IMG/VR virus record: IMGVR_UViG_3300034175_000069
Strand: one strand, 5' to 3'
Origin: a virus
Lineage: Duplodnaviria; Caudoviricetes
DNA: 64,000 nucleotides
The position numbers and the translations under genes were made by a program. The notes below the pieces were generated by a model. The model was not told the DNA's origin, searched no databases, and worked only from the letters and a program-made list of their open reading frames with translations. Positions within the stretch are counted from its first letter, which is position 1. Every line of letters begins with the position of its first letter. Positions 504 to 63,996 of the stretch are shown here, one piece after another.

Positions 504-539
504 GTTGAGTTTGTTGACACGTCAGCCGATACTCAGTGC
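504..539 (+). promoter_or_regulatory. Leaderless promoter: TTGAGT-17-GATACT-6-ATG with GTTGACA in the spacer
   Basis: GTTGAGT 504, GTTGACA 513-519, GATACT 528-533, ATG 540. Confidence 0.75.
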
Positions 540-1169
540 ATGACGCAGAACGAGGACTTCCAGCCCGTAACCAAGATCAGCATCATCAGCGCCGTGGTGG
601 CGCTGGCGTTCATCGCCCTGGTGCTGGCCATCTGGCCGACCAGCGGCGCGCAGACCGCAGCCGCTGCGCAGGCTCAGCCGACCCAGACCCTGGCCCAGAT
701 GACCGCAGAGCCGGTGGCCGAGCCGAGGGCCCAGGCGCAGATCGCCGCTCAGCCGTCCCAGCTGGCCGCTCCGGCCCTCGCAGCCCCTGCTGGGACCACG
801 GACATCCCCCAGGCGATCTCAGCCCGTCCTGCGGCGTCTGAGCCGGTTCAGCGCAACGGCGCTGGGACCTCGATCCCGACCACCGATGAGCTGCTGCCCG
901 CGACCAACCCCGTGCCGTTCGACGCCTGGGCCACCCCGGCCGACCAGGCCGAGGCGGCGCAGTACCGCGCCGAGCACCCGATCGCCTGCGCCGACTACGC
1001 GATGCTGACCGCCGAGGACGGCACCTGCGTGACCTCGGACTTCTACGCCGACCAGACGTTCCGCACCGACCCGGAGAGCAACCCCGCCGAGGTCATCCAG
1101 GAGGACGACCCCCGCTGGGACTGCGCCACGATGGGCAACCGGATCTGCGGGCCCCAGCCCCTCAACTGA
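540..1169 (+). CDS. Membrane-anchored or secreted hypothetical protein
   Basis: N-terminal hydrophobic helix (ISIISAVVALAFIALVLAIW), Ala/Pro/Gln linker, Cys-containing C-terminus (EDDPRWDCATMGNRICG). Confidence 0.75.
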   Translation: MTQNEDFQPVTKISIISAVVALAFIALVLAIWPTSGAQTAAAAQAQPTQTLAQMTAEPVAEPRAQAQIAAQPSQLAAPALAAPAGTTDIPQAISARPAASEPVQRNGAGTSIPTTDELLPATNPVPFDAWATPADQAEAAQYRAEHPIACADYAMLTAEDGTCVTSDFYADQTFRTDPESNPAEVIQEDDPRWDCATMGNRICGPQPLN

Positions 1170-1180
1170 TCAACCCGCTC

Positions 1181-1212
1181 AGAAGCCCGTCAGCATCAGC
1201 TGACGGGCTTCT
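1181..1212. terminator. Bidirectional terminator hairpin between convergent genes
   Basis: Perfect 14-bp inverted repeat AGAAGCCCGTCAGC-atca-GCTGACGGGCTTCT. Confidence 0.8.
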
Positions 1213-1236
1213 GGCATGTCCGGGCCCGGAACCCCC

Positions 1237-1413
1237 TCAGAGGCCGGGAGCGGGCGGCTCAGGCGGCGCGCTGGCCCCCTCATCACGTCCACGTGCCCAG
1301 CGCACACCGCGCCAGAAGCCGTGGGCCCAGGACAGGCTCCAGCCCGCGAACGCGGCCAGCATCACCGAGCCCGCCCACATCAAGATCCCGAAGCTGGACA
1401 GCAGCACGTCCAT
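1237..1413 (-). CDS. small membrane protein (58 aa)
   Basis: Hand translation MDVLLSSFGILMWAGSVMLAAFAGWSLSWAHGFW...; TGATG coupling to the upstream gene. Confidence 0.6.
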   Translation of the reverse strand: MDVLLSSFGILMWAGSVMLAAFAGWSLSWAHGFWRGVRWARGRDEGASAPPEPPAPGL

Positions 1414-1730
1414 CAGTCCCGCTCCCCCATGCGCCGTCTGCGCTCAGCCCTGGTCTCCCGGCCGGGCTGATAACCGGGGTTATCAGCAGGGTCTGGGACA
1501 GCATCACGAACGTGTGGGACAGCGTTCAGCCGGGCCTGGACAGGGATCTCAGCGGTCTTCGAGTCAGCCCCAGCTGCGTCAACCGCTGGGAGAACGTGCA
1601 GGTCAGGGCCGGTTGACACGGGCTGATCGGCGCTCGAACGCTCATCAGCTGAACGGCGTGCGAAGAAGCCGATCAGCACGCCCAGGCCGAGACATCCCCA
1701 GCAGATCAGGACCCAGGCGATCGTGTTCAC
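1413..1730 (-). CDS. small membrane protein
   Basis: GTG start; MNTIAWVLICWGCLGLGVLIGFFARR forms a transmembrane helix. Confidence 0.65.
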   Translation of the reverse strand: MNTIAWVLICWGCLGLGVLIGFFARRSADERSSADQPVSTGPDLHVLPAVDAAGADSKTAEIPVQARLNAVPHVRDAVPDPADNPGYQPGRETRAERRRRMGERD

Positions 1731-1897
1731 CGGCCGATGCTGTCCAGCTCGCGCCAGAGCTGGTCCATCGACTCGATGTCCGCCCTCGGCCGCCTGGAGC
1801 GGTTGAGCTTCACCAGGCGGTGCGTGAACCACAGCAGCGCGCCCACCACAGCCGCCCAGACGGCCGCCACGACCCCCACGATCAGCCCTACGCCCAC
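1727..1897 (-). CDS. small membrane protein (56 aa)
   Basis: Hand translation MGVGLIVGVVAAVWAAVVGALLWFTHRLVKLNR...; GTGA overlap. Confidence 0.6.
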   Translation of the reverse strand: MGVGLIVGVVAAVWAAVVGALLWFTHRLVKLNRSRRPRADIESMDQLWRELDSIGR

Positions 1898-2364
1898 GGG
1901 TTGCCCCAGTCCTCCGGATCGCTGGGAGCGCCAGGGTGGCCCTCACCCTCGCTCATCGGCATCAGCTCGGCCTCAACGATCTCGCCCTCGTCGTCATCGA
2001 GCAGACCGAGCGCATCAGCCATCGCGCCGGTCTGCTCAGCGCTGGACATCAGCGCCTGCGTCGGGCCCTTCAGGTCCTTCAGCCGCTTCCTGATCACCTC
2101 AGCGGGCGACAGCTGGGTGGTCAGGCCGTAGTCCTCGGCCTCCTGCGGCACCACCCTGAAGTGGACCTCCTTCGGCGGGGCCAGGCCGACCCTGTCCAGG
2201 ATGGCCGTGGCCGCCTGGACCCTGGCCACCTCGGACTTGCCGTTCTCAGCGATGTCAACCAGGGCAGATGCCGCCACCGGTGCGCCGCCCGCCAGCACCT
2301 TCCACGCGGTCTGGATGTGCTCGGGCCCGCCCTGGACAGCCGGGGACTTCGAGGGCTCAGCCAT
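1888..2364 (-). CDS. Terminase small subunit-like helical protein (tentative)
   Basis: Motif AASALVDIAENGKSEVARVQAATAILDRVG resembles the 'R..AA..ILDR.G' motif of many phage TerS-like proteins. Confidence 0.45.
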   Translation of the reverse strand: MAEPSKSPAVQGGPEHIQTAWKVLAGGAPVAASALVDIAENGKSEVARVQAATAILDRVGLAPPKEVHFRVVPQEAEDYGLTTQLSPAEVIRKRLKDLKGPTQALMSSAEQTGAMADALGLLDDDEGEIVEAELMPMSEGEGHPGAPSDPEDWGNPWA

Positions 2365-2430
2365 CGCTCATCAGCTCATCGCTCATCAGCTCATCAGCGC
2401 TCATCAGCTCATCAGCCGCGCTCATCGGCC
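2357..2430 (-). repeat. Short tandem repeat (CTGATGAGC/GATGAG); reads as micro-ORF MSAADELMSADELMSDELMSDG (2357-2425)
   Basis: Plus strand reads gctcatcagctcatcgctcatcagctcatcagcgctcatcagctcatcagcc. Confidence 0.8.
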
Positions 2431-2442
2431 CACCCTCATCAG

Positions 2443-8257: not shown

Positions 8258-8286
8258 CAGATGCTCGTGTCAGGTGTGTGCGTCAT
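8257..8286 (-). CDS. 9-aa leaderless leader peptide MTHTPDTSI
   Basis: ATG lies 6 nt after the -10 box CATAGT; its TGA overlaps the ATG of 8051-8257. Confidence 0.55.
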   Translation of the reverse strand: MTHTPDTSI

Positions 8287-8323
8287 GCCGTGACTATGGC
8301 AGATGCTGTCAACTGTGTCAACG
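8287..8323 (-). promoter_or_regulatory. Leaderless promoter with tandem GTTGACA
   Basis: Minus strand reads gTTGACAcagttgacagcatctgcCATAGTcacggcATG. Confidence 0.8.
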
Positions 8324-8391: not shown

Positions 8392-8691
8392 TCAGGGCTG
8401 CGTGCGCAGCCACTCGGCGAATCCCTCGGTGTCGCCGTCCCAGCTGCCCAGGCCGAAGCTCAGGCTGGGCTTGTCACCGATCAGGCGGCCGGTCGGGGTG
8501 ATCACGACGAAGTCCCGGTCGGTGGCGATCATCTGGGCGGTGACCTCGGCGGCGGGAACCTCGCGCCGCTGGAACGGGCCGTTGAGGTAGGCCAGGGCCT
8601 CCTCGGTGGTGTTCGCCCCGGCGGCGATGGCGCGGGCCATCAGGTCGTCGTCGGTGGTCAGGTCGGCTGCGGTGTAGCTCGTCTGCGTCAT
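8392..8691 (-). CDS. hypothetical protein (MTQTSY...), leaderless
   Basis: Start at 8691 preceded by TTGACA-17-TTTACT-6 (8692-8727). Confidence 0.7.
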   Translation of the reverse strand: MTQTSYTAADLTTDDDLMARAIAAGANTTEEALAYLNGPFQRREVPAAEVTAQMIATDRDFVVITPTGRLIGDKPSLSFGLGSWDGDTEGFAEWLRTQP

Positions 8692-8750
8692 GGAGAAAGT
8701 AAAGCACCCCGTGTCAACAGTGTCAACACGGGGTGCTTCGGCGTGGCGTG

Positions 8751-9446
8751 TCAGCCCTCGATGGCCTCGACGGTCTCGCCCTCCAGGACCGGCAGCTCCA
8801 GCAGGCCGCTGGCCTGACCGGCCTCCAGGCCCAGGTGCGCGGCGTGCTGGGAGACCATCGCCTCGATGTCGGCGCGGGCCTTCTGCACGACGTTCTCGGT
8901 GTCCTCGCGCAGCACCTTGGAGGCGTAGCCGACGTTGGCCTCGGCGTTCTCCAGCGCGAAGTGCAGGTCGCGCAGCGCGTCGTTGCGCACCTTGGCCGGG
9001 GCCTTGTCCTTCAGCGCCTGCTCGTAGGTGGCCATCGCCTTCTTGGCCCGGCCGAACATCCGCTCGGCCGCGCCCTTGACCGCGTCCATCGACTTGGCCA
9101 GCCGGGGTGCGAAGGGCAGCTCGGGGAGCTGACCCTGGCCACGCACCCAGCGCAGCGTGGCCGGGACGCCGGAGGTGTTCATCGAGGACACGAAGCTGGC
9201 CCACTGGGCCTCGCTCAGCTCGACCTCGATCAGCTGCTTGCTGCCGCCGTGGATCCAGTCGTGGTTGTTCTCCCGCTTGCGGGTGGCTGCCTCGATCGTG
9301 ATCCGGATGGTGGTGCCGTGCTTGATGTCGGAGTCGAACAGCACCACGCCGGGGGTGCTGGTGACCCGGGCAGCCCGGATCATCCCGAAGGCTGGGTGCT
9401 CCTCCGCGCCGTACTGGTTGACAGTGGGCTCGACGGTCTCGCGCAT
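8751..9446 (-). CDS. phage hypothetical protein
   Basis: Clean GC3-biased ORF (HPAFGMI...SEAQWASFVSSMN); TGATG coupling to the upstream gene. Confidence 0.75.
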   Translation of the reverse strand: MRETVEPTVNQYGAEEHPAFGMIRAARVTSTPGVVLFDSDIKHGTTIRITIEAATRKRENNHDWIHGGSKQLIEVELSEAQWASFVSSMNTSGVPATLRWVRGQGQLPELPFAPRLAKSMDAVKGAAERMFGRAKKAMATYEQALKDKAPAKVRNDALRDLHFALENAEANVGYASKVLREDTENVVQKARADIEAMVSQHAAHLGLEAGQASGLLELPVLEGETVEAIEG

Positions 9447-9823
9447 CAGTTGATCACCCCGGCCGCGCGCAGCTCGGTGCGCAGGTCGCGGACATCGTCG
9501 CTGGCGTGGTTGGCCAGCAGGTAGCCGTCCTCCAGGGTCTTCAGGTAGCTGTTCTGCCGCTCCCGGGCCCGCTCCACGGTCAACTCCATGTCCTCGGTCA
9601 GCTGCTGCCGCTGCCCGGTGCTCAGGACCGTGTAGCCCAGCTGAGCGGCCAGGTCCTTCAGCAGCTGCTCGGCGGAGGCCCGCAGGGTCAGGACGGTCAT
9701 GTCCGGATCGCCCAGCGTGCCTTCCAGCTTCAGCTGGAAGGTCTCGGCCGGGGTGCCCGCGTAGGCGGTGGAGACGAAGATCGTCTCGGCGGCGATGGTG
9801 GGAGTGGTGCTGGTCTGCGTCAT
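9446..9823 (-). CDS. hypothetical protein (MTQTST...), leaderless
   Basis: Promoter TTGACA-17-CATACT-6-ATG at 9824-9859. Confidence 0.75.
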   Translation of the reverse strand: MTQTSTTPTIAAETIFVSTAYAGTPAETFQLKLEGTLGDPDMTVLTLRASAEQLLKDLAAQLGYTVLSTGQRQQLTEDMELTVERARERQNSYLKTLEDGYLLANHASDDVRDLRTELRAAGVIN

Positions 9824-9878
9824 GGGAGAAGTATGCACCCTGATGTCAACAGTGTCAACAACCTTCGTGCGTGTTGTG

Positions 9879-11245: not shown

Positions 11246-11804
11246 CAGCTCTCCACCACCTTCGCGGCCTTGGCCAGTTCCTCGGACTCGGTCAGGGGCA
11301 GTCCGCGCCCGAAGTCGTGCAGCACCTCCACGACACCGCTCCGCCGGGACGTGCACTCCAGGGAGCGGCTACCGGTCCGGGCGTAGCGCCAGCCCGGGGA
11401 CTCCCAGCGGGAGTTGACGTACCGGCGGCCGGGCGTGCGCCGTTCGCGGGTGAGCAGCGCCCGCTCCACCGTGCCGATCGTCTCGCCGTCCAGGCGGACC
11501 TGGTAGCGCGGCAGCTTGATCGGCTCGCGCTTGTGTACGGCATCGCGGGTGCTGGTCAGCACCAGCTCCACGGTGTGGTCCATCAGCGGGTCTCCTCCCA
11601 GTTCGTGACGGTGCGGCTCTCGACCAGCACCCGGTGGACGCTGGACCCGTAGACCCGGTGGTTGATCCCCCAGCCGTGCGTGCGGGCGGCGTCCTCGGTC
11701 GGGAACGGGCCGTTCGGGTGTGCTGCGACCCGCCGCTGCGCAGGCTGACGGCAGTACGTGCACGGGTCCTCCGTGCACTCGATGACCGCCTGGAACTCCT
11801 CCAT
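11245..11804 (-). other. Two small hypothetical genes (11245-11583, 11583-11804)
   Basis: TGATG coupling; the second has CTYC. Confidence 0.6.
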
Positions 11805-12421
11805 CAGAGGAAGTCCGTCGTGATGATCCGAGCGCCCATCCGCTGCATGTCGTCCAGCGCCACCTTCGTGGTGCCCTCCGCGACCCCGGCGGTCAGGTTC
11901 TTGATCACCCGGACCTCGGCCAGGCCCGACAGCTGGAGGGCGTCCAGCGTGGACTGGTAGACGCAGTAGTCGGTGGCCAGGCCGACCACGTCCATGCTGG
12001 TCACGTTGTAGCGGCCCAGGTTCCAGCTCATCGGCTGGCGGGTCAGCGCGCCCTCACCCTGGAAGGCCGAGTAGTCCGGCCGACCCATGCCCTTGACGAT
12101 CTCGACCCACCGGCCCAGGCGGCCGGACAGGGTCGGGATCAGGTCGGGGTGGTAGTCCGCCCCGGCGGTGTTCCGCACGCAGTGCACCGGCCACGTGTGG
12201 ACGTAGTCGGGGTCCTCACCCTCGGGGGCGAAGTGCCCGCCGTTGGTGTCCGGCAGGGCGTTGTGCACGTCCCGGCTGGCGAACACCATCGGGTAGAGCC
12301 CCGGGCGGGTGTCCAGCAGCTGGGCGATCCCAGCGGCGACGGCGTTGCCGCCCTCGACGGCGAGTGCGCCGCCCTCACAGAAGTCTCGCTGCACGTCCAC
12401 GATCAGCAGTGCTCGGGCCAT
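11804..12421 (-). CDS. pncA: Nicotinamidase/pyrazinamidase (isochorismatase family)
   Basis: LLIVDVQRDFCEGGALAV, RDVH, WPVHC, KG...YSAF, GLATDYCV catalytic motifs. Confidence 0.93.
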   Translation of the reverse strand: MARALLIVDVQRDFCEGGALAVEGGNAVAAGIAQLLDTRPGLYPMVFASRDVHNALPDTNGGHFAPEGEDPDYVHTWPVHCVRNTAGADYHPDLIPTLSGRLGRWVEIVKGMGRPDYSAFQGEGALTRQPMSWNLGRYNVTSMDVVGLATDYCVYQSTLDALQLSGLAEVRVIKNLTAGVAEGTTKVALDDMQRMGARIITTDFL

Positions 12422-12547: not shown

Positions 12548-12592
12548 GGGGAAAGTATGCACTCTAGTGTCAACAGTGTCAACGAACTAGAG

Positions 12593-14542: not shown

Positions 14543-14812
14543 ATGGCCTTGGGCATCCAGGAGATCGTCCGGCGCATGGGGTTCCACCCGGCGACCGTGA
14601 CCACCATCCCGATCTTCGAGGAGAACAGGCACCAGGCCATCGAGTTCGCGCTGTACCTGGACGAGACCCTGCCCGACGGCCGGGACAAGTCCCTGGCGCT
14701 GACCGCCCTCCAGGAGTGCCTGATGTGGGCGAACGCGGCGGTGGCCTGCGTCAGCCCGCTGGAGGACAAGCACCTGCCCCATGACCTGCCGCCCGGCGAG
14801 CACCTGGGGTAA
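14543..14812 (+). CDS. Acb2/Tad1-like helical hairpin protein (putative immune-signal sponge)
   Basis: RRMGFHP...LPDGRDKSLALTALQECLMWANAAVA matches my recollection of the F.YH.P...P.GREKSLA.T.LEE..MWANAAIA family pattern. Confidence 0.65.
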   Translation: MALGIQEIVRRMGFHPATVTTIPIFEENRHQAIEFALYLDETLPDGRDKSLALTALQECLMWANAAVACVSPLEDKHLPHDLPPGEHLG

Positions 14813-14834: not shown

Positions 14835-16529
14835 ATGGGTGATCAGCCCGTTGCCCCGCGTTATCTGGAGGACCGAGTGGGTGCCACTCCCGGCCTTGGC
14901 TTGACCTGGCCCGAGATGACCGATCCGGCAGACGGGCCAGATGCCTTCTCGGATCTCGCCGGTCAGGTCGAGAGCTACGTGCTCAACCGCACCCCGGTCA
15001 CCGGTGTCAACCACTACCCGATCCACGACTGGGGCTCGGGCAACGTCCTGCCCGAGAACGCCCGGGTCGGGGACACCTTCTGGCACACCGGGCTGAAGTG
15101 CCGCCTCTGGAACGGCGGATCGACCACCGTCGGGACGGTCACGACGCCGATCTGGCACCAGGCCACGCTGGCCCGGGTAGCCGACCGCGCCGCGCGCCTG
15201 GTCATCTCGGCGAGCTACCCGACGGTCATCTTCGGCGGCTACCAGGTCCAGCAGATTGACGATGGGTCGATCTGGAGCTGGTCCGGTACCGACTGGAAGG
15301 CCGTCGGAGCCGGAGCTGGCGGGGGCGGGGGCAGGCCGGTCCAGGAGACCCTGACCGTCCCCTACGCCTACGACGCTGGAGCCAACCAGTTCACCGGGCC
15401 GAACCCTCCACCGACCGGGGTCCAGCCAGCGATTCCGCCCTTCTCCACTGTCGCCCCTTCTGTGGGCGTCTACGACAACAAGATGTGGGTGTTCGGCAGC
15501 TCGAACACCTACACCAGTGGCGGCGTGACCGGCGGGCTCTGCGCGTACTACGACTTCGCGGCGAACACCTGGACGATGCGGCAGTCCATGCCGACGGTCC
15601 GTTACGGGATGGCCGGAGCGTGGAGTGGCGGGAAGTTCTACGCCATCGCTGGCTACAACGGGGCCAACCGGAACGATATGTACGACCCGGTCACCAACAC
15701 CTGGCTGGCCAAGGCGTCGATACCAACCGCTGTCAACTACCCCGCCGTAGCAGAACTCGACGGCAAGATCTACGTCATCGGTGGCTCCACGAACACCAGC
15801 TACAGCGGTGCATCGAACCTCGTCCAGGTCTACGACACGGTGACCAACACCTGGGAGACCAGGGCGACGATGCCGACCCTCCGGAGTCGGTGCGCCGCCT
15901 TCGTCTACGGCGGCAAGATCTATGTGTTCGGCGGGCTGAGCAACGGATCGTCCACGCTTGGTGTGCTGGAGATGTACGACCCGGCCACCAACATCTGGGT
16001 GGGCAAGGCCGCAGGCCCGAGCACGTACATGCACAGCCTGCTGGTGCACACAGCGCCTGCGGGTGCACCGATCACCACGCCGATGGTCTATGTGTTCGGC
16101 GGTCCTGATTACCCGAACTACATCAGCACCTACAACCCGGTGACGAACATCTGGCAGAGCCTGGGATGGCTGGTCAGCACCTCCTATCTGTTCTCGGTCG
16201 CCACCAGTGGTCCTACGCAGCGCTACGTTCAGAACGGCGGAGCGGCCGTCTACGGCCAGCGGTTCTGGTTCATCGGTGGAGACGGCAACGCCCCTGGCAA
16301 CGCCTTCTGGTGGTACCGGTGGTACGGCTGGAAGGCGAACCCGATCCGGACCCTGGATGGTCCGTCGATTCTTGCCATCATGGAGCCCAACATCACGCTC
16401 CGGAACAACCAGACCCTCTACGAGGGCTCGATCGTTGCCGGGATCCTCAACCAGACCATGACGCCCTACGGGGAGCGGATCCAGAACCGCGACATCGACG
16501 TGCTCAACATCGTCAACGCCGGAGGCTGA
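14835..16529 (+). CDS. Kelch-repeat beta-propeller protein, probably virion/tail-associated
   Basis: Repeated GG...YD(P/T)xTNxW units (GKIYVIGG, GKIYVFGG, MVYVFGG); N-terminal LGLTWPEMTDPADGPDAFSDLA resembles actinophage minor tail proteins. Confidence 0.85.
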   Translation: MGDQPVAPRYLEDRVGATPGLGLTWPEMTDPADGPDAFSDLAGQVESYVLNRTPVTGVNHYPIHDWGSGNVLPENARVGDTFWHTGLKCRLWNGGSTTVGTVTTPIWHQATLARVADRAARLVISASYPTVIFGGYQVQQIDDGSIWSWSGTDWKAVGAGAGGGGGRPVQETLTVPYAYDAGANQFTGPNPPPTGVQPAIPPFSTVAPSVGVYDNKMWVFGSSNTYTSGGVTGGLCAYYDFAANTWTMRQSMPTVRYGMAGAWSGGKFYAIAGYNGANRNDMYDPVTNTWLAKASIPTAVNYPAVAELDGKIYVIGGSTNTSYSGASNLVQVYDTVTNTWETRATMPTLRSRCAAFVYGGKIYVFGGLSNGSSTLGVLEMYDPATNIWVGKAAGPSTYMHSLLVHTAPAGAPITTPMVYVFGGPDYPNYISTYNPVTNIWQSLGWLVSTSYLFSVATSGPTQRYVQNGGAAVYGQRFWFIGGDGNAPGNAFWWYRWYGWKANPIRTLDGPSILAIMEPNITLRNNQTLYEGSIVAGILNQTMTPYGERIQNRDIDVLNIVNAGG

Positions 16530-17000: not shown

Positions 17001-17339
17001 GTGATCGAGCACTCGCGCACGCTGGCTCCCGGCTGGACCGAGGAGCAGCTGGAGCTGACCGAGGCGCACGTCCGGGAGCACCTGGCGTCGATTGCCGACG
17101 CCGACGACGACCCGAGCACCCAGGCCGAGGACGTGCGGTTGACGCGGCGGCGGGAGGAGGACGGCGGGCTGACCATCGTCGGCTACCTCGATGCCGAGCC
17201 GAACGCCCCGTACCTCCAGCCCGGGTACGACCCGGACGCCGAGGCCCGTCCCGACTGGTTGACATGGACCCCGGCGGACCAGCCGGACTGGGATCCGCAC
17301 GCCGCTGACCCGGCCGAGCCCGAGGAGCCCTCGAAGTGA
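17001..17339 (+). CDS. acidic hypothetical protein
   Basis: GC3-biased ORF with a GTGA overlap onto the lysin gene. Confidence 0.65.
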   Translation: MIEHSRTLAPGWTEEQLELTEAHVREHLASIADADDDPSTQAEDVRLTRRREEDGGLTIVGYLDAEPNAPYLQPGYDPDAEARPDWLTWTPADQPDWDPHAADPAEPEEPSK

Positions 17340-18154
17340 GCCTGGTCTTCGCCCGCGCCCTGGCGGAGTTCATGTCCGCGCACGGCGTCCAGGTCACCTG
17401 GGAGCCCGGCGCGGAAGTGCGGGGCAACGGCCAGGTGTCGGCCTACCAGGGCGTCTCGGTCCACCACACGGCGACGGCGTCCTCCACGAAGTCCCCCGGG
17501 GTGCTCACCGCCGGGCGGCCGGACCTCTCCGCCCCGCTGTGCAACTCATCGGGCCCCTCGGACGGCCGGTTCCACATCGTGGCGGTCAACCCGGCCAACC
17601 ACGCCGGTGCCTCTGGTGGCTGGGACACCGCGCCGCTGCCGAAGACCGGGCTGTTCAACAAGCTCATGTGGGGCCACGAGACGGTCTACGAGGGCACGAA
17701 GCCCATGAACGACGCCCAGTACCGGACCGCCACGATCCTCGGTGCCGGTGTCTGCCGTCTGCTCGGCCACGACTACGACCCGCGCTGGGTGAAGTTCCAC
17801 CAGGGCACTTCCGTCACCGGCAAATGGGACCCGGGCTACGCCTCGGGGAAGACCTACGACATCAACGAGTTCCGCTCCAAGGTGCTCATCGTGATGAAGG
17901 GCCAGGCTCCGGCCCCGGTCCAGATCAAGACTTCGGAGGACGACACGATGTACATCAGCTGCGCCAAGAAGAACGTCACCGCCATCTACTCCGGCGGCAT
18001 CCTCACCGGGCTGGCATCGGCGGGGGAGATCAAGAGCATGGAGGGCGAGGTGGCCGCTGGCCGCGCTGCCCGGCAGTGGGTCGAGGACTTCACCTTCGAC
18101 GCCCTGGACCGCCGGTCCAAGCTGCTCACCGGAGAGATCAAGCCCTCCACCTGA
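17336..18154 (+). CDS. Endolysin, N-acetylmuramoyl-L-alanine amidase (type 2)
   Basis: VHHTAT, GRPDL..PLCN, ANHAG, GHE, FH...KWDPG motifs typical of actinophage amidases. Confidence 0.88.
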   Translation: MSLVFARALAEFMSAHGVQVTWEPGAEVRGNGQVSAYQGVSVHHTATASSTKSPGVLTAGRPDLSAPLCNSSGPSDGRFHIVAVNPANHAGASGGWDTAPLPKTGLFNKLMWGHETVYEGTKPMNDAQYRTATILGAGVCRLLGHDYDPRWVKFHQGTSVTGKWDPGYASGKTYDINEFRSKVLIVMKGQAPAPVQIKTSEDDTMYISCAKKNVTAIYSGGILTGLASAGEIKSMEGEVAAGRAARQWVEDFTFDALDRRSKLLTGEIKPST

Positions 18155-43135: not shown

Positions 43136-44290
43136 GTGCCTGGTTACGTGCAGGACAACGCCGCTTCAGTCCGAGGCCGCGCGCTTCGGGTGACGCAGCT
43201 GGGGTCCGACGGTGCACCCATCACCGGATCCTCGTGTGACGTGTACCTGACCGGCGGCTTCATCTCGTTCCAGTTCACCCCGGAGTACTCCGAGGGCGAC
43301 GAGATCGAGATCAAGAACGCCGCTGGAGAGACCTGCGTCTACTACAAGCTCCCCGACACCCTGAAGAACGTCGGGCTGAGCATGAGCATCTGCGACCCGG
43401 ACCCCGTCCTGACGCAGATGCTGGTCGGTGGTGAGGTGCTGACCGCTGGTGGCACCTCCACCTTCGCCCCCTCGGGGACCGACGCCGGGGACATGGTGGC
43501 CATCGGCTACGCCTCCGAGCTGGCCGGTGCCGTGGCCAACCCGAACGGCGTGGCCGTGGAGGTCTGGGCCGACGCGGTGGTCAACGGGCGCTCTGCGTCC
43601 CGCGCCCCGTTCTGGCACTACCTGTTCCCGTCGGCGCAGTTCCGGCTGGACGGCGACCGGGTCATCGAGAACGGCAACCTGGCCACGGCCTTCGCAGGCA
43701 CGGGCACGGGCAACGAGGCCTTCGGCTCCGGTCCGAACCTGGACCTGGCCGGAGTCACCCCGGCTCCGCCCGCTGGTGCCTTCGACTGGCGCTTCCCGGC
43801 CCACACGGACCGGCCCTTCCTCTACACGCGCAGCTTCTTCGCGCCGCTGGGGCTGAAGGGTCAGTTCGACAACCTCGGGATCCCGATCGTGCGGATCACC
43901 GCTGGGGATCCGGGCGTCTTCAGCCCGGTCAACGCCACGCGACCGGCCGATCTGGCCGACCTCCAGTCGCAGGGCGCTCTGGGCAGCACCACCGCCTGGG
44001 ACCCCAACGAGTTCGTCACGCTGCGGGACAACACCGAGGCGTACTGGGACGGGGCCGCCTGGGTCGCCGGTCGGGCTCCGGCTCCGGCCATCGTGGCCAC
44101 CGGCGCGACGGCGGGCACGCCGGGCATGTTCACGCCTCCGGGCGCGGACGCTCCGGCCGACCTCGATGCGCTGGAGGATGTCGTCGCCACGCCGACCACT
44201 GCCTGGACCGTCGGGCAGCGGATCGTCCTGGCGGACGGTACGACGGCACACTGGAACGGCACCGCCTGGGTTGCGGGCTCCGCGACCTGA
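43136..44290 (+). CDS. Major tail (tube) protein with two C-terminal accessory repeats
   Basis: RGRALRVT...GF.S....EY.EGDEIE.KNA.G..C and CDPDP motifs; duplicated about 65-aa AG.PG.F.P...P.DL..L...W...W.G.AW..G unit. Confidence 0.85.
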   Translation: MPGYVQDNAASVRGRALRVTQLGSDGAPITGSSCDVYLTGGFISFQFTPEYSEGDEIEIKNAAGETCVYYKLPDTLKNVGLSMSICDPDPVLTQMLVGGEVLTAGGTSTFAPSGTDAGDMVAIGYASELAGAVANPNGVAVEVWADAVVNGRSASRAPFWHYLFPSAQFRLDGDRVIENGNLATAFAGTGTGNEAFGSGPNLDLAGVTPAPPAGAFDWRFPAHTDRPFLYTRSFFAPLGLKGQFDNLGIPIVRITAGDPGVFSPVNATRPADLADLQSQGALGSTTAWDPNEFVTLRDNTEAYWDGAAWVAGRAPAPAIVATGATAGTPGMFTPPGADAPADLDALEDVVATPTTAWTVGQRIVLADGTTAHWNGTAWVAGSAT

Positions 44291-45066: not shown

Positions 45067-45621
45067 ATGACCTACGCCCGGACCGACCCGTTCGCGGCCG
45101 ACCGGCTGGCTGAGGCCGATGCTGCGGCTGCCGCGATGATCGAGGCGGCCGAGGCCGGTGCCAGCACCGGGCCTTCGACCCTCTCCAGCATGGGTGAGGC
45201 CTTGCTGGAGATCGTGAAAGCCGCCGCCCTTGCCAAGGGCACCCCGCTCCCGGCCAGGCAGTCGGTCTACATGGCCCCGATCCCGGCCGACTGTGAGCAG
45301 GTCGCCGTGCTGTTCACCGGCTGGAACCCCACCCCGGCCGCCGACGGGCCGACCATCTGCAAGCCGTGGCGCTGGATGGGCAGCTACTCGGTGATCATCA
45401 CCCGCTGCACACCCGCCGTGCAGAAGGGCAAGACCCCGCCCTCGATGGAGATGATGATCGAGGCCGCGCGCCTGGCCAGCTCGGACGCCGAGATCCTGCT
45501 GGAGGCTGTCAACCGGCTGGACGAGATCGGCTCGGACATCTCGGTGGTCACGAACGCTCCCTCCGGCGGCTTCCAGACCGTCGAGCTGAACGTCCAGCTG
45601 CTGGCGGTCGGCACCTTCTGA
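45067..45621 (+). CDS. Head-tail joining / tail terminator-like protein
   Basis: Position and DCEQ...I.RC pattern. Confidence 0.55.
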   Translation: MTYARTDPFAADRLAEADAAAAAMIEAAEAGASTGPSTLSSMGEALLEIVKAAALAKGTPLPARQSVYMAPIPADCEQVAVLFTGWNPTPAADGPTICKPWRWMGSYSVIITRCTPAVQKGKTPPSMEMMIEAARLASSDAEILLEAVNRLDEIGSDISVVTNAPSGGFQTVELNVQLLAVGTF

Positions 45622-46043
45622 TGGCCCGGACCAAGGTCGAATGGGTCCCCGACGAGGCAGCCATCAAGGAGTTCGCCGGGTGGACCGGGCCCGTGGGCCA
45701 GTCGGTCAACCGCCTGGCGATGGAGGCCGTCTTCCGGATCCGTGGCCTGGCCAACCGGCGCTCGGGCGTGATGACTGCCGGGATGCACTACAAGAAGGGC
45801 ACCTGGTCCCGGGGGATCCAGTTCGATGCGGGCTCCGACGTGGGCTACACGCTGTTCGTGGACCAGGGGACCAAGCCGCACCCGATCAAGCCGAAGAACC
45901 CCGGTGGGGTGCTGACCTTCTACTGGCCCAAGGTCGGCCGGGTCGTGCACTTCAAGTCCGTCCAGCACCCCGGCAACAAGCCCTACAAGTTCCTGGAGCG
46001 CGGCCTGGAGGCCGCCCTGAGCATGTGGGAGCGCGGCGGTTGA
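45621..46043 (+). CDS. HK97 gp10-like neck/tail-completion protein
   Basis: Y..FV..GTKPH.I.P...L.F....VF...V.HPG..P..FL motif; its stop codon lies inside a GTTGACA copy. Confidence 0.75.
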   Translation: MARTKVEWVPDEAAIKEFAGWTGPVGQSVNRLAMEAVFRIRGLANRRSGVMTAGMHYKKGTWSRGIQFDAGSDVGYTLFVDQGTKPHPIKPKNPGGVLTFYWPKVGRVVHFKSVQHPGNKPYKFLERGLEAALSMWERGG

Positions 46044-46092
46044 CATGACCGGCTGACAGACTGCAAGCGCACGTGCACGCCCCGCTGATGAG

Positions 46093-54453: not shown

Positions 54454-54759
54454 ATGACGAAGATCGAGTTGCGGGAGCCTCCGGCTCGGTCGGCACCCGG
54501 CCGTCGCCCGCTCATGCCGCTGGACGTGCGGATCCTGGAGATCGCCACCGAGGCCATGCGCCCAATGGAGATCACCCGGGTCCTGGCGGAGGAGGGCACC
54601 CACCCGGGCATCAACACCCAGCGGGTCGCCAGCCGCCTGAAGTCCCTCGTGGACCGAGGGATGATGACCCGGATCCGGCCAGCGGGCGGTCCGGCCAACG
54701 GGCCCGGCACCAGCCTGTACCGGGTCAAGACCGAGGGGGACAGCTCCAGCGATGGGTGA
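54454..54759 (+). CDS. Winged-helix DNA-binding protein, leaderless
   Basis: LDVRILEIA...PMEITRVL...TQRVASRLKSLVDRGMMTR...LYRV; promoter GTTGAGT-8-TATTCT-6-ATG. Confidence 0.75.
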   Translation: MTKIELREPPARSAPGRRPLMPLDVRILEIATEAMRPMEITRVLAEEGTHPGINTQRVASRLKSLVDRGMMTRIRPAGGPANGPGTSLYRVKTEGDSSSDG

Positions 54760-56352: not shown

Positions 56353-57051
56353 TCAGGACCAGTAGGTGGCGCAGACCGGGCCGATGCCGTTGGCGACCGA
56401 GACCGGGTCGGTGAGCGTCGCGCCGCAGCGGACGCAGAACCCGACCGCCTTGCCCTTGGCGGCGGCCTGGTCCTGGCTCAGCGGCTTGATGCCCGCCTGC
56501 ACAGCGGCGACCAGCGCGCCGGGGACCCAGATGGTCTTCGTGACCTCGGTCTTGTTGTAGCCCTTGCCCGCGTAGGGCACGAAGGTGGCCTCGATCTTGG
56601 CGGCCTTCGTGGTGCTCCCGGCGGTGCCGTAGGCCTTCTTCCAGCTGCCCTTCTTCTTGCCGTCCCAGGTGGTGGTGATGTGCAGCTGGCGGAGGATCGG
56701 GTAGGCGTCCTTGCCGGTGATGTCCCAGTAGAACAGCGTGCCGTCCACCTCGTAGTAGCCGAAGGCCGGGCACTCGGTGAGGACCGGAGCGGCCGGGATG
56801 ACCGGCTGAGCCACAGCGCCGGTGAAGACGGGGATCTGGATCAGCTTGGCGGTGGGCTGCGTGGTCTTGATCGGCGCGGCCAGCAGCGCGGTGATCCACT
56901 CGCTGGCCTGGCCCTTCTGGCACCCGCCGAGGCGGCTGACGAAGCGGTACTTCTCGCACACGTCGGGCAGGTCGCGCTTGACTACCAGGTCGTTCAGGAA
57001 GCTGATCTGGGCGGCGGTGGCGGGCTCGGTGGGGTTCTTGATCTGCGGCAT
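56353..57051 (-). CDS. DUF6011-containing protein, leaderless
   Basis: C-terminal G.C.RCG..LTDP.S...GIGPVC; N-terminal AT..QI.FL..L...R; promoter TTGACA-17-CATACT-6. Confidence 0.8.
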   Translation of the reverse strand: MPQIKNPTEPATAAQISFLNDLVVKRDLPDVCEKYRFVSRLGGCQKGQASEWITALLAAPIKTTQPTAKLIQIPVFTGAVAQPVIPAAPVLTECPAFGYYEVDGTLFYWDITGKDAYPILRQLHITTTWDGKKKGSWKKAYGTAGSTTKAAKIEATFVPYAGKGYNKTEVTKTIWVPGALVAAVQAGIKPLSQDQAAAKGKAVGFCVRCGATLTDPVSVANGIGPVCATYWS

Positions 57052-57108
57052 GAGAGAAGTATGCACCCTCGTGTCAACAGTGTCAACAAGCAACACGCCG
57101 GAACGGCA

Positions 57109-57159: not shown

Positions 57160-57510
57160 TCAGTCCGCGCACTCCCGGCAGAGGCACGGGGCCATGCACC
57201 CGGAGCAGAAGAAGACATCCCGGGCGTGCGGGTCCTCGAAGACGGTGCAGGCGCATCCGCCCGCCCCGCAGGACCGGCACACCCGGGCGAAGGCGCTGGT
57301 CTCCCGGGTCTCGCTGGCCTCGGTGCCGCACTCGGTGCAGCAGACGCCGTCCACGAACAGGAGGGCGTCGGCCAGCGTGCCGCCGAACTCGTCGCGGGCC
57401 TCCTCGACGGAGACGACCGGGAAGCGGTGCAGGTTGACCAGGCCGGTGCTGACGGCCATGACGACCATCGCGTGCCGGACTTCGGGCTGGGGGAGCAGTG
57501 TCTGCGTCAT
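57160..57510 (-). CDS. Cys-rich (four CxxC) hypothetical protein MTQTLL..., leaderless
   Basis: CTEC, CRSC, CSGC, CREC; tandem-motif promoter at 57531/57540. Confidence 0.75.
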   Translation of the reverse strand: MTQTLLPQPEVRHAMVVMAVSTGLVNLHRFPVVSVEEARDEFGGTLADALLFVDGVCCTECGTEASETRETSAFARVCRSCGAGGCACTVFEDPHARDVFFCSGCMAPCLCRECAD

Positions 57511-57556
57511 GGGAGAAGTATGCGCTTCCCTGTCAACAGTGTCAACACTGACACGC

Positions 57557-58103: not shown

Positions 58104-58442
58104 TCAGGCACCGTGGCCCATGAAGACCGAGCCCTGGAAGACGGCCCAGTGGGCCAGGCTCGTGTCCAGGGTCCCGGCCTTCTCGGCCGCCCGGATCTCG
58201 GTCAGGGCGAACTCGCAGGCGTTGCGCCAGCGGTCGGTGCGGCCCAGGGCGTAGCCCTCGGTGCTCATCCGCTGGGCGACCTCGACCATCTTCTCCAGCG
58301 GGTACGCGGGCATCTCGATGCCTGCCTGCTTGCTGTGGAAGGCCAGGATGTCGTGGTCAGCCATCGCGGCGGTGCAGTCCTTGATGAAGGCCATGCGCTT
58401 GTCGGTGGCGGAGAGCTTGGGGGCAACTGCTGTCTGCGTCAT
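58104..58442 (-). CDS. hypothetical protein MTQTAV..., leaderless
   Basis: Tandem-motif promoter at 58464/58473 with CATACT-6-ATG. Confidence 0.75.
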   Translation of the reverse strand: MTQTAVAPKLSATDKRMAFIKDCTAAMADHDILAFHSKQAGIEMPAYPLEKMVEVAQRMSTEGYALGRTDRWRNACEFALTEIRAAEKAGTLDTSLAHWAVFQGSVFMGHGA

Positions 58443-58487
58443 GGGCTAAGTATGCACACGTCGTGTCAACAGTGTCAACACATCAGC

Positions 58488-62575: not shown

Positions 62576-62605
62576 GCCATGAGTATGGCAGCTTTGTCAT
62601 CTATG

Positions 62606-62788
62606 TCAACTAGATGGGGTTGCAGCTTCCCGCGCGGCGCGGCGTTGCTGCACCAGGTCCCGGGTCCGCACGTCGATCAGCGGCCTGCGGAGCACCTGGC
62701 TGAACATCTCGATCAGCGCCTGGTCGGCGTGGTCCCGGCGAGTCCGGAGGTAGGCCGAGAAGTCGGCCGGACCTGCGTCGTCACTCAC
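62606..62788 (-). CDS. small hypothetical protein
   Basis: GTGA overlap; its stop codon lies inside GTTGACA. Confidence 0.5.
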   Translation of the reverse strand: MSDDAGPADFSAYLRTRRDHADQALIEMFSQVLRRPLIDVRTRDLVQQRRAAREAATPSS

Positions 62789-63501
62789 GTCAGCAGGCCC
62801 TTGCGCTTGGCCTGCCACAGCTTCTCCTCATGCGGCAGGGCGGGCTTGATCCAGTCGCCGGAGTCGCACGCGATCAGGTCCCCGCCCATGTGCTCGGGGT
62901 CGTCCCAGTGCTGGCCGTGGAAGTGGCACCAGAGCCGGGAGGACGGCTTCTCCTCGGCGAACAGGTCGTCCTCGTCCGGCGGGATGTTCATCGTCGGGGC
63001 CCAGCCCTGGGCCAGCTTGTAGCCGTCCTTGGTGATCACGCCGTTCTCCCAGATGGTCTTCATGCCTGGGTCGGCCTTCCCCTGGGACAGGGTGGCGTCG
63101 TGGTGTGTCAACCACTTGGCTGCCAGCTGCTCGGCCACAGCGTCGGACTGCTCTGGGGTGGTGATCATCCCCACCGGGATCCCGTAGACCTGGGAGAGCT
63201 TCTCGGCGATGTCGGCGAAGACCGGGGAGATCTCGTGGTTGAAGGCGGCCATGCTCTCGCCCATCGCGGTGGCGGCCTCGCCGATCGACTTCATCTGCTC
63301 GGTGAGCACAGACGTGTCGAAGTTGAATGAGATCTCTGCTCCCGGGGGCAGCACGGTCAGCTCCTTGCCGTCCTCGCCGTACCAGGTGTCTGGAGCATCT
63401 GGCAGAACGAAGTCCAGGGGAGCGCAGAACCCGCCGCTGGCAAGAAGCATGTGCGACTCGTGCGGCTCCGGCGGGGTCCCGCACTTGCAGATGTCCGTCA
63501 T
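62785..63501 (-). CDS. hypothetical protein carrying a capsid-like ASGGFCAPLD motif
   Basis: ATG 63501 overlaps the upstream stop; motif read directly. Confidence 0.7.
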   Translation of the reverse strand: MTDICKCGTPPEPHESHMLLASGGFCAPLDFVLPDAPDTWYGEDGKELTVLPPGAEISFNFDTSVLTEQMKSIGEAATAMGESMAAFNHEISPVFADIAEKLSQVYGIPVGMITTPEQSDAVAEQLAAKWLTHHDATLSQGKADPGMKTIWENGVITKDGYKLAQGWAPTMNIPPDEDDLFAEEKPSSRLWCHFHGQHWDDPEHMGGDLIACDSGDWIKPALPHEEKLWQAKRKGLLT

Positions 63502-63767
63502 CGACGCCGCTCCTCCGCTGCTGCCCGCTCCGCCCGGTGGGCGAAGATCCCATCCTGGTACCGCTTCTCCAGCGGCGTCCGGGGCACTGCGCCCGTGCGC
63601 AGCTCTCCCCGGCGATCGGGTGTCAACCACTCCGAGAACGTGCCGTGCGTGCAGGTGCACAGCTTGGCCGAGAAGCAGTCGAGGTGGCGGCCCTGCTGGC
63701 ATCGGTCACAGATCCAGGGCTCGGTCTCGTTGTCACCGACGAGCTTCAGCACTGTTGCTTCCCCCAC
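63498..63767 (-). CDS. small Cys/His zinc-binding hypothetical protein
   Basis: CDRC...H..C...CTC.H; GTG start inferred. Confidence 0.55.
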   Translation of the reverse strand: MGEATVLKLVGDNETEPWICDRCQQGRHLDCFSAKLCTCTHGTFSEWLTPDRRGELRTGAVPRTPLEKRYQDGIFAHRAERAAAEERRR

Positions 63768-63779
63768 CCCGGCAGTATC

Positions 63780-63910
63780 GGGCGGCAGCGGGGAGGGGAG
63801 TCGCACCCCACGCCCAGCCTGCACTGACGGTTTCCTCGGCGGGACTAGCCGATGCAGTGGGACCGGTTGCCCGGTGCAGCCCCGCAGATGCTGCTTCGCC
63901 ACTGCCGCCC
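63780..63910 (-). ncRNA. Candidate 131-nt structured RNA (or structured 5' leader)
   Basis: 5' GGGCGGCAGU pairs with 3' GCUGCCGCCC; internal hairpins; begins exactly 6 nt after CATACT. Confidence 0.5.
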
Positions 63911-63937
63911 GGGTGAAGTATGCCCGGCGCACTCAAC
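63911..63937 (-). promoter_or_regulatory. Promoter GTTGAGT-8-CATACT-6 driving the RNA candidate
   Basis: Same geometry as the leaderless promoters elsewhere in the window. Confidence 0.6.
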
Positions 63938-63959
63938 ATCGGGAAGACACGGTGTGTCT

Positions 63960-63996
63960 GTTGACAGTGTTGACATGCTCATGCCATAGTCATCCC
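63960..63996 (+). promoter_or_regulatory. Leaderless promoter with tandem GTTGACA; its gene starts at ATG 63997 and runs out of the window
   Basis: gTTGACAgtgttgacatgctcatgcCATAGTcatcccATG. Confidence 0.75.

Follow-up and report, generated by a model that had tools for sequence, protein, structure and literature searches.

A seven-base word under DNA-level selection recurs at even spacing in a soil phage genome and forms part of its early promoters

Dispersed sites that are read by one protein and that combine regulation with a function for the whole replicon include the KorB OB sites of RK2, the Noc and SlmA sites and the SopB centromeres of N15; each of these sets has between 4 and about 70 sites, which are palindromic, 13-16 bp in length and without an even spacing of 1 kb. 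Repressor-stoperator systems have been described in Cluster A mycobacteriophages (L5 gp71, TipsytheTRex), in Rhodococcus Cluster CA phages and in Streptomyces R4/phiJoe-like phages, where the reader is a monomer and the stoperators are 13-14 bp long, occur in 8-36 copies per genome, are located in short gaps between genes or at the ends of genes, and run one way relative to transcription (PMC9283540, PMC13313380, PMC10276819). The uptake sequences USS (Pasteurellaceae) and DUS (Neisseriaceae) are bacterial and chromosomal, and are read by the competence machinery in DNA uptake. They occur at about 1 copy per kilobase, in similar numbers in both orientations and more evenly than random, with preferred reading frames, placement at poorly conserved residues, enriched tripeptides and lineage dialects (PMC2817400).

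The sequence analyzed here, hereafter the window, is a stretch of 64,000 nucleotides (IMG/VR record IMGVR_UViG_3300034175_000069) within contig C109, which has a length of 85,438 bp and a 142-bp overlap between its ends, giving a circular assembly of approximately 85.3 kb. The assembly of C109 represents a biocrust-metagenome bin, which was analyzed as assembled contigs, and all comparisons with "host" DNA refer to the bin-mate contigs only. This phage of approximately 85 kb from soil carries the word GTTGACA about once per kilobase, with the following copies in the window:

513-63975, 32 on the plus strand and 49 on the minus strand: 81 exact GTTGACA tags

The initial annotation of the window reported about 80 copies of GTTGACA/TGTCAAC where base composition predicted about 3. 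The exact count of 81 compares with 4.03 +/- 2.23 copies (largest value 10) in 100 dinucleotide-preserving shuffles. The whole contig contains 108 copies, as compared to 143 copies in the remaining 6.40 Mb of the assembly, which corresponds to a 57 times higher density in C109. Variants with one mismatch are at background level and show no enrichment, and TTGACA is preceded by G in all 108 cases in C109 and in 287 of 287 cases across three genomes. The single sites, about 62 of which are located in the window, share the extended consensus Y-G-GTTGACA-C-G-G, and the flank preferences hold in all reading frames as well as in intergenic DNA. GTTGACA is a different word from TGGGGCAG and TGTGGGCA. 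The repeated word is thus confirmed, and the observation is stronger than first described.

Slightly more than half of the sites in the contig (55/108) are situated wholly within predicted genes, and the density of sites is about 4-fold higher in intergenic DNA. The 55 intragenic copies remained far above background in a codon-preserving shuffle, with 4.4 +/- 1.9 copies expected when synonymous codons were shuffled within genes and 2.3 +/- 1.5 when codon order was shuffled. The codons used inside the word are rare in this genome, as had been noted, with GTT representing 2.9% of the valine codons and TCA 3.0% of the serine codons. In related phages, GTT was kept in 15 of 21 cases inside the word versus 3 of 35 outside, and TCA in 11 of 17 versus 1 of 9 (pooled Fisher P = 3e-8), showing a retention of these codons that is particular to the word. 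The positions of GTTGACA were kept in 50-69% of the cases, versus 21% for other 7-mers, in relatives with approximately 72% nucleotide identity. The intragenic copies display a strong reading-frame bias and are placed at variable residues; in 50 of 81 site-to-relative comparisons (41 against R1 and 40 against R2) the amino acid differs in the relative. From the shuffling of codons, the conservation of positions and the rare-codon retention in relatives, we conclude that selection on GTTGACA acts on the DNA itself, as was initially proposed.

Seven copies had been attributed to a single gene:

25211-33973, plus strand: gene for a 2920-aa protein with 7 tags, 5 of them on the coding strand, where they encode V-D-(T/I), and 2 on the opposite strand, encoding V-S-T

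All seven were located, at positions 25518, 26213, 27902, 29735, 30599, 32183 and 33315. The copy described at the TerL start lies at 19175-19181 and adjoins the GTG start codon at 19174. Two further copies had been described as containing stop codons, which holds for the copy at 46039-46045 with the TGA stop of gene 45621-46043; the copy at 62604-62610 contains the stop only of a putative 70-aa minus-strand ORF (62606-62818).

The spacing of the sites is far more even than random and is independent of orientation. Gaps in the whole contig average approximately 0.88 kb and reach at most 2.64 kb. The coefficient of variation (CV) of the spacing was 0.58, 0.55 and 0.69, as compared to 0.98 when sites were placed at random, and no more than 2 gaps were shorter than 200 bp versus 19.5 expected. 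The evenness is a property of the combined set, in which orientation acts as a random label: sites of each orientation alone are spaced no more evenly than half of the sites picked at random, and there are as many orientation runs as with random labels. Within genes, 27 sites have the same orientation as transcription and 28 the opposite, in agreement with the earlier statement that both orientations occur and are not aligned with transcription. No orientation switch was seen around the putative origin, and no clustering of sites at the ends.

The word had also been noted in promoters, and we find that early promoters are built from tandem copies of GTTGACA. Eleven exact tandem pairs constitute leaderless early promoters, and approximately 12 such promoters are present in total. 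The upstream copy forms the -35 element, the second copy, 9 bp downstream, sits in the spacer, and a CATACT-like -10 element follows 17 bp after the upstream copy. Three genomes share this architecture, GTTGACA-NN-GTTGACA-N8-CATACT-N6-ATGACGCAG. A sigma-70-type -10 element at 16-18 bp downstream is found for the tandem pairs only; among single sites, 1 of 86 has a TANNNT hexamer at this distance. The promoters and pairs in the window are:

504-542, plus strand: early promoter with the degenerate tandem GTTGAGT-tt-GTTGACA, a GATACT -10 element and a leaderless ATGACGCAG start at 540
8307-8322, minus strand: tandem pair (-35 copy and spacer copy), with a CATAGT -10 element, then ATGACGCAC
8712-8727, minus strand: tandem-tag leaderless early promoter upstream of gene 8392-8691
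9844-9859, minus strand: tandem-tag leaderless early promoter upstream of gene 9446-9823
12568-12583, minus strand: tandem-tag leaderless early promoter
41347-41362, minus strand: tandem-tag promoter within the structural region, driving a pair of small genes on the minus strand, 41086-41325 (predicted membrane protein) and 40697-41089
57072-57087, minus strand: tandem-tag leaderless promoter upstream of the DUF6011 gene
57531-57546, minus strand: tandem-tag leaderless early promoter upstream of gene 57160-57510
58464-58479, minus strand: tandem-tag leaderless early promoter upstream of gene 58104-58442
63960-63975, plus strand: tandem-tag leaderless promoter upstream of the gene starting at 63997

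It is plausible that the promoters and the dispersed sites share a single binding protein.

Three to four complete relatives (82-90 kb) contain 84-112 copies of GTTGACA, as compared to 0-3 copies for reversed-word controls. Relative L184 is also GTTGACA-tagged, with 36 tags and no tandem promoters. In a sister lineage, with a capsid protein that is 51% identical, the word is instead G-AATGACA, which occurs in 17 copies per 21.9 kb versus 0.7 expected, with a spacing CV of 0.48 and with the same flanks, cgG...cgg, as GTTGACA. The promoters of the sister lineage have a different palindromic element, and G-AATGACA is kept out of them. No tag was found in other relatives with 45-46% capsid identity, and the tag therefore behaves as a trait that phage lineages gain or lose. 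New relative to the initial annotation are the evenness of the spacing, the promoters built from tandem copies and the dialect of the sister lineage.

By analogy, the pattern resembles stoperators, and even more so bacterial DNA uptake sequences. Many dispersed copies of an asymmetric word, a -35-like TGTCAA core and a copy overlapping the -35 element of an early lytic promoter are features in common with stoperators. The differences are a 7-bp core (approximately 12 bp with flanks), about 100 copies per 85 kb, equal orientations and even spacing, and the sites are indeed unlike those of L5 in both orientation and location, as had been pointed out. The uptake-sequence pattern is matched by the density of about one copy per kilobase, the two orientations, the evenness, the frame bias, the variable residues and the lineage dialects; unlike USS and DUS, however, GTTGACA is found in a phage genome, is shorter and doubles as a promoter element. 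The set may also be likened to the KorB, Noc, SlmA and SopB sites, as sites dispersed over a replicon for which one reader is proposed, and no ParB-like protein was detected in the phage.

Searches of the phage proteins against Pfam and PHROGs identified no repressor, sigma factor or methyltransferase. Two proteins were considered as possible readers of the word:

54454-54759, plus strand, directly after the tail genes: bare winged-helix (wHTH) protein of about 100 aa with a basic N-terminal arm
56353-57051, minus strand: DUF6011 protein of 232 aa with a C-terminal CxxC...GIGPxC zinc ribbon

The wHTH protein, suggested earlier as a binder, has the only recognizable conserved DNA-binding fold, but there is no clean correspondence between its recognition helix and the word. 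It is only a weak candidate, because tag-less relatives have orthologues in the corresponding position and one relative has a quite different recognition helix, yet GTTGACA is present. The genes for the DUF6011 protein and for a 298-aa protein with a basic tail co-occur with the tags, in a comparison for which tag-less genomes were sampled within +/-10 kb only. The DUF6011 protein is encoded in every tag-bearing locus that covers the region and in 0 of the tag-less loci sampled. The comparison of its model with solved folds gave no match. The DUF6011 protein is regarded as a candidate, either for the reader or for a partner.

The exactness of the core is more typical of modification or restriction enzymes, or of Chi readers, than of most repressors, and GTTGACA could be the recognition site of a phage- or host-encoded modifying or nicking enzyme, acting by self-marking base modification or by site-specific single-strand interruptions as in T5, phiKMV and tf-like phages. 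Such a target is consistent with mismatch variants at background, with an asymmetric site like those of Type IIS, Type III or BREX-like enzymes, with orientation-independent spacing and with the different word in the sister lineage. However, the proteins that were scanned yielded no methyltransferase, glycosylase-type or HNH nickase domain, the complete avoidance of 17 palindromic hexamers suggests that the DNA is not generally protected by modification, and the fixed tandem pair in promoters suits an operator better. We consider an enzyme target unlikely, albeit the least unlikely of the alternatives. The specific proposal of a GTYRAC modification target is disfavoured, since GTTGACG and GTTGACT are near the bin-mate density, GTTGACC is 5-fold up and GTCGAC has 0 copies, versus 57-fold for GTTGACA. 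A little less probable is a molecular drive, of the kind that has been proposed for bacterial uptake sequences, by which packaging initiation or recombination biased towards word-bearing DNA would spread copies with little function of their own through co-infection and recombination. The point-by-point match to USS/DUS (PMC2817400) and the many sites at residues that differ in the relative agree with this, but a drive still needs a biased reader and addresses why copies accumulate, not what reads them, and the positional conservation despite the sequence divergence argues for purifying selection on individual sites. The phage genome also codes for a Prim-Pol and a DUF3987 helicase, for which the word might provide start sites of lagging-strand synthesis about every kilobase. 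Some primase-polymerases require multi-base template words, and a spacing of about 1 kb is that of Okazaki fragments. Priming is strand-specific, but only the combined set of both orientations is even, orientation does not switch around the putative origin, the helicase is also present in a tag-less relative and the tandem promoter pair is left unexplained; the probability of such priming sites appears low, below that of a drive.

Marginally lower still is the probability of stoperator-type immunity, in which, as in Cluster A mycobacteriophages, a repressor acting at many sites blocks both initiation and elongation and silences the prophage. The asymmetric dispersed sites, the similarity of the core TGTCAA(C) to the TGTCAAG end of L5 and Rhodococcus Cluster CA stoperators (PMC9283540, PMC13313380) and the overlap of an operator with the -35 element of early promoters, of which there are approximately 12 tandem cases here, favour such a system. 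The balanced orientation, the mostly intragenic location, the 3-4 times higher density and the even spacing speak against it. No L5 gp71 homologue was found by phmmer against all ORFs of three genomes (best E-value 0.3), no integrase, ParA or ParB/partition domains among the proteins scanned, no integrated copy in 60 related genomes and no match to the promoter pattern in 185,579 species genomes. Host RNA polymerase is a very improbable reader. The core contains a perfect TTGACA, the same word is the -35 element of the early promoters, and the sites could thereby collect or titrate sigma-A holoenzyme, as was suggested for sigma region 4. This is disfavoured by the sister lineage, where AATGACA does not have the T with which the -35 hexamer begins and yet has the same density, spacing and flanks outside promoters, and also by the invariant G before TTGACA (287/287), the preferred CGG flank, the near absence of -10-like hexamers at promoter distance from single sites and the tags of L184, which has no tandem promoters. 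The least probable of all is that the sites are Chi-like and tame a host helicase-nuclease (RecBCD or AdnAB). Like GTTGACA, the word of Chi-enriched phages is short, exact, asymmetric and strongly over-represented, and Chi-rich phages are documented, but these (LLS, P1 and other lambdoid phages) are the ones without a Rec module (PMC12315714). The phage studied here has recombination-type genes of its own, for a PD-(D/E)XK nuclease, an AAA_24 protein and a RuvC-like protein. Moreover, the word of Chi-enriched phages is the host's Chi, polar and end-clustered, none of which applies to GTTGACA: the bin-mates show no enrichment, orientation is random, there is no clustering at ends, and sister lineages use different words.

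The reading that we prefer, tentatively and at somewhat below an even chance, is that YG-GTTGACA-CGG, the full form of the single site, serves as a docking word specific to the lineage, for a reader encoded by the phage that has been co-opted for an operator role at early promoters. The data show selection at the DNA level, evenness of spacing, independence of orientation, the make-up of the promoters and the dialect; that a protein binds, which one, and to what end the genome is marked are inferred. Most likely, the reader is a sequence-specific DNA-binding protein of the phage, which would recognize one asymmetric site at a time and would mark the phage genome throughout, at about one site per kilobase, regardless of strand or gene. 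The genome-wide lattice looks like the original, conserved role, because the same lattice is formed in the sister lineage by a different word, G-AATGACA, outside its promoters. In the present lineage, GTTGACA coincides with the -35 hexamer of host sigma-A and was built into the approximately 12 leaderless early promoters; the same reader would therefore occlude the tandem promoters and turn the early genes off. If the docking-word reading is true, a protein should bind specifically to GGTTGACACGG over GAATGACACGG or one-mismatch oligonucleotides. The marking may serve to discriminate phage from host DNA for packaging or nuclease protection or, alternatively, may provide a row of roadblocks along the genome.

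The heptamer GTTGACA (TGTCAAC on the other strand), here called the word or tag, forms a real, highly non-random and conserved lattice across this phage genome. The initial annotation had estimated about 80 genome-wide copies, far above expectation, and we found 81 exact copies in the window, as compared to 4.0 +/- 2.2 (maximum 10) in dinucleotide-preserving shuffles. The window belongs to contig C109 of a 6.48-Mb biocrust metagenome assembly, in which the word occurs 108 times on C109 and 143 times in the other 6.40 Mb. Whether the host shares the enrichment had been raised as a possible objection; the density is 57-fold lower in the other contigs (bin-mates), which are not proven to be the host. 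One-mismatch variants occur at background levels, with the exception of GTTGACC, which is 5-fold enriched (29 copies versus 5.8 expected from the bin-mate density) and may represent decayed or incipient tags. A G precedes TTGACA in all 108 cases on the contig, whereas from the bin-mate density another base would be expected in approximately 3 cases per genome. A literature search for GTTGACA in connection with phages found nothing relevant.

C109 is 85,438 bp long, and its initial 142 bp are repeated at the end; it thus assembles as a circle of approximately 85.3 kb. The phage is known from soil and biocrust metagenomes only. It encodes a full tailed-phage gene set, including the following (window coordinates unless marked as contig):

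19174-20781, TerL
23568-25214, portal
25211-33973, + strand, 2920-aa head-module protein, N-terminus matching 2H/LigT-type phosphoesterases
34929-36362, + strand, 477-aa head-module protein with a Zeta-toxin-like P-loop kinase domain
41496-43091, major capsid
43190-44290, major tail
present on the contig, tape measure gene
replication module, PD-(D/E)XK nuclease, AAA_24, PolA, SNF2 helicase, Prim-Pol and DUF3987

The 2920-aa and 477-aa proteins are probably virion-associated enzymes. An 89-aa protein (14543-14812, + strand) matches the Acb2/Tad1 hairpin domain (E = 4e-18) and is likely to be a sponge for cyclic-nucleotide defence signals. Directly upstream of the Amidase_2 lysin (17336-18154) lies the gene for a 542-aa protein with Kelch beta-propeller repeats (14901-16529, + strand), and an isochorismatase-family protein (11804-12421, - strand), with a homologue in the tagged relative L184, lies amid the early genes. 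Seventeen palindromic 6-mers, including CCGCGG, GCCGGC, GGCGCC, CTGCAG, CGTACG, GTCGAC and GAATTC, have zero copies on the whole contig (5-165 expected from the bin-mate density). This pattern, which looks like heavy restriction-site avoidance, is mostly, not wholly, common to the relatives R1 and R2, R1 having 143 copies of GGCGCC. When 8 kb were compared by megablast with 50,697 phage records, none matched, and comparable word enrichment was not found in the nearest named phages by TerL (DSL-LC01, GodonK, GMA2, Cece and Sixama, approximately 45% identity).

Selection on the word acts at the DNA level, as the initial annotation had proposed. The predicted genes contain 55 copies, as compared to 4.4 +/- 1.9 after the within-gene shuffle of synonymous codons that it had suggested as a check, and 2.3 +/- 1.5 after a shuffle of codon order. 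The intragenic sites use reading frames that avoid an in-frame TGA and mainly encode V-D-T, x-S-T, x-V-N or x-L-T. The word is present in 54 of the 245 amino-acid contexts able to hold it, showing that the genome is not saturated. Single sites have the flanks Y-G-GTTGACA-C-G-G in all frames as well as in intergenic DNA, so that the flanks, too, are a DNA-level feature. The described use of rare codons in both orientations was likewise confirmed: one third of the phage's GTT and TCA codons fall in the word, and the intragenic sites are split between the coding strand (27) and the opposite strand (28).

Three near-complete relatives were identified in IMG/VR, namely R1 (86.5 kb, 95 copies of the word), R2 (89.6 kb, 84 copies) and R3 (82.7 kb, 112 copies of TTGACA), while reversed-word controls in the relatives gave 0-3 copies. 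Their capsid proteins are approximately 68-69% identical to that of the contig, and the nucleotide identity of R1 and R2 to the contig is approximately 72% over the alignable 50 kb. A G precedes TTGACA in 287 of 287 cases in the contig, R1 and R2 together. The retention of the motif in related phages, another check suggested at the outset, was evident: within alignable DNA, 50-69% of the sites are kept exactly in position, versus 21% for other 7-mers. Where the amino acid is unchanged, GTT is retained at 15 of 21 positions inside the word and at 3 of 35 outside, and TCA at 11 of 17 and 1 of 9, respectively (Fisher P = 3e-8 for both codons pooled). The relative has a different amino acid in 50 of 81 site-to-relative comparisons (41 with R1, 40 with R2), and the word thus often sits in variable parts of proteins.

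The sites are also evenly spaced, a property absent from the initial annotation. With each tandem pair counted as one site, the gaps had a coefficient of variation (CV) of 0.58 in the contig, 0.55 in R1 and 0.69 in R2, as compared to 0.98 for random placement in each case (P <= 0.0002 for all three). The largest gap is 2.6 kb, versus approximately 4.5 kb expected, and just 2 gaps fall below 200 bp, versus 19.5 expected. This regularity emerges only when both orientations are taken together: considered separately, neither is spaced more evenly than a random half of the sites, and the orientation runs agree with random labelling. Evenness that does not depend on orientation argues against strand-specific reading of the word, whether as Chi, in lagging-strand priming or as polar stoperators.

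Eleven exact tandem pairs are present on the contig, 9 of them in the window, in addition to some degenerate pairs. Their layout is GTTGACA-NN-GTTGACA-N7-8-(C/G)CATACT-N6-ATGACGCAG, in which the upstream copy is located 17 bp from a CATACT-like -10 element and the ATG follows approximately 6-7 nt past the -10, suggesting leaderless early promoters of the sigma-A type with a conserved M-T-Q start. A protein bound to the second copy, which falls within the promoter spacer, would occlude the polymerase. The tandem design is shared by R1 and R2. Of the approximately 86 single sites that remain beside the pairs, one has a TANNNT hexamer at promoter distance. Most genes that follow tandem-tag promoters (504-542, 8284-8322, 8689-8727 and others) open with a leaderless ATGACGCAG(A), encoding M-T-Q. 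Conservation of this start in three genomes suggests that the promoter design extends over the first nine bases of the transcript. Two small minus-strand genes (41086-41325 and 40697-41089), one encoding a predicted membrane protein, are located between the protease/scaffold region and the capsid gene and have their own tandem-tag promoter, suggesting an early-type cassette embedded in the late operon.

The most informative result came from the more distant relatives, found by a capsid-profile search of metagenomes. In the sister lineage S1 (capsid 51% identical; sequence pieces L159, L171 and L176, approximately 42 kb in total), TTGACA is almost absent and G-AATGACA is found in its place, with 17 copies in 21.9 kb versus 0.7 expected. 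These copies occur in both orientations, are evenly spaced (CV 0.48 versus 0.94 for random placement) and have the same cgG...cgg flanks as in the contig. The S1 early promoters consist of a TTGCTA-like -35, a TAGCACGTGCTA palindrome in the spacer and a TACCAT -10, with no tag in them, and their leaders have Shine-Dalgarno sites. In the S1 early region, 11 of 19 tags are located at gene junctions, where the ATG and TGA inside the word are used. The 12-bp palindrome TAGCACGTGCTA occupies the place where the present lineage has a tag copy and looks like a classical dimeric operator. Two more lineages carry GGTTGACA(CGG), one represented by L167, L168 and L170 and the other by L184, which has 36 copies in 15.6 kb and is without tandem promoters. 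No such word was found in similarly distant relatives (L161-L164, L166 and L181-L183). Only some lineages thus have the lattice, the word is changeable and the link to the -35 element is peculiar to the present lineage. A host sigma factor is therefore an unlikely reader of the word, and these observations point to a phage-encoded one.

A scan of approximately 100 proteins against Pfam and PHROGs identified no repressor, sigma factor, methyltransferase or integrase, no homologue of L5 gp71 was found, and four small basic proteins had no sequence match in the PDB. A protein atlas gave weak leads of the winged-helix type only. The winged-helix protein (54454-54759), suggested in the initial annotation as a possible binder, was modelled with a pLDDT of 84.8, and the model most resembles the DNA-binding domains of Fur, PerR, PadR and MarR (TM 0.6-0.7). 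Besides a conserved basic arm at its N-terminus the protein bears a GPxNGPG wing, and its helix-3 sequence TQRVASRLK is nearly invariant across 26 homologues; the 4 of these sampled for tags were all on GTTGACA-tagged contigs. Its homologues in IMG/VR are all members of the lineage, and the helix reads THDIAIRLR in the AATGACA lineage. The apparent covariation of QRVASRLK and HDIAIRLR with the word is, however, insufficient, since in wider searches the gene was found at the same position, past the last tail gene, in the tag-less L181-L183, and L184 combines a divergent helix, QHKVANRLL, with GTTGACA. We consider it unlikely that this protein is the reader. Two further proteins, the DUF6011 protein (56353-57051) and one of 298 aa whose tail is basic (contig 72951-73847, outside the window), were found in every tagged locus covering their region and in no sampled tag-less locus, the tag-less genomes being known only within 10 kb on either side of the winged-helix gene. 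Both genes are preceded by a tandem-tag promoter in this phage. This co-occurrence is a lead rather than a result. For the modelled DUF6011 protein (pLDDT 75), no similar fold was found among solved structures, and no mention of DUF6011 was found in a literature search.

Among known systems, stoperators are the nearest described mechanism. They are asymmetric TGTCAA-containing words that overlap the -35 and are read by a monomeric repressor, but they are polar, intergenic, 13-14 bp long, and present in 8-36 copies per genome of temperate phages (PMC9283540, PMC13313380, PMC10276819). This phage departs from four of the five defining features tested, and the contrast drawn earlier with the L5 sites, which are oriented with transcription, agrees with the equal strand distribution observed here. 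A sink for host RNA polymerase, proposed as titration of sigma region 4, fits the -35 position of the tag in the present lineage but not S1, where the word is AATGACA and the promoters have no tag. Chi-rich phages differ from this phage in every respect tested (PMC12315714). Stoperator-type immunity, the polymerase sink, Chi, an enzyme target, priming sites and accumulation by drive are less likely alternatives, each of which fails at least one test. In unrelated IMG/VR phages of 40-58% GC (L041, L067, L069, L081, L122 and L133), the 9-bp unit CTGTTGACA was observed between VapE-like primase-helicase and VRR-NUC genes, densely clustered in local arrays of 6-13 copies that lie in both orientations, many of them in 9-bp tandems. 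These arrays may represent a regulatory region or a replication origin. The tandem arrangement thus recurs elsewhere with the same unit, without a genome-wide lattice. In BLAST comparisons, these phages shared the SNF2 helicase alone with this phage, and no link by a common reader was established.

Taken together, the likeliest reading, which we hold tentatively, is that the lattice is a lineage-specific docking word by which a phage-encoded reader marks the whole genome, the word serving also as an early-promoter operator in this lineage. As a pattern, the closest match by analogy is the uptake sequences of bacteria (USS/DUS), which occur approximately once per kb, equally in both orientations and more evenly than random, with a frame bias, placement at poorly conserved residues and dialects (PMC2817400). 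As to the purpose of the genome-wide marking, we infer one possible, rather doubtful answer, namely that the word is a 'self' tag with dialects, a viral counterpart of these sequences. A phage machine would then accept kilobase-sized DNA as phage only when the word of the lineage is present; this could be packaging initiation, a nuclease for degradation of host DNA or surveillance, or a genome-coating protein. Word and reader would co-evolve, one lineage having GGTTGACA, its sister GAATGACA and others no word at all.

The GGTTGACA and GAATGACA dialects and the tag-less relatives provide a natural experiment for the reader and its function. The tag may be used as a simple sequence signature to recognise and bin these soil phages, and the compact, strongly conserved tandem-tag leaderless promoter is a candidate regulatory part for high-GC hosts. 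The lattice is strong enough to alter codon use, and even protein sequence, at approximately 100 places. If it is read by a phage protein, it would represent a novel means of labelling an entire viral chromosome, distinct from the polar, intergenic stoperators tied to lysogeny.
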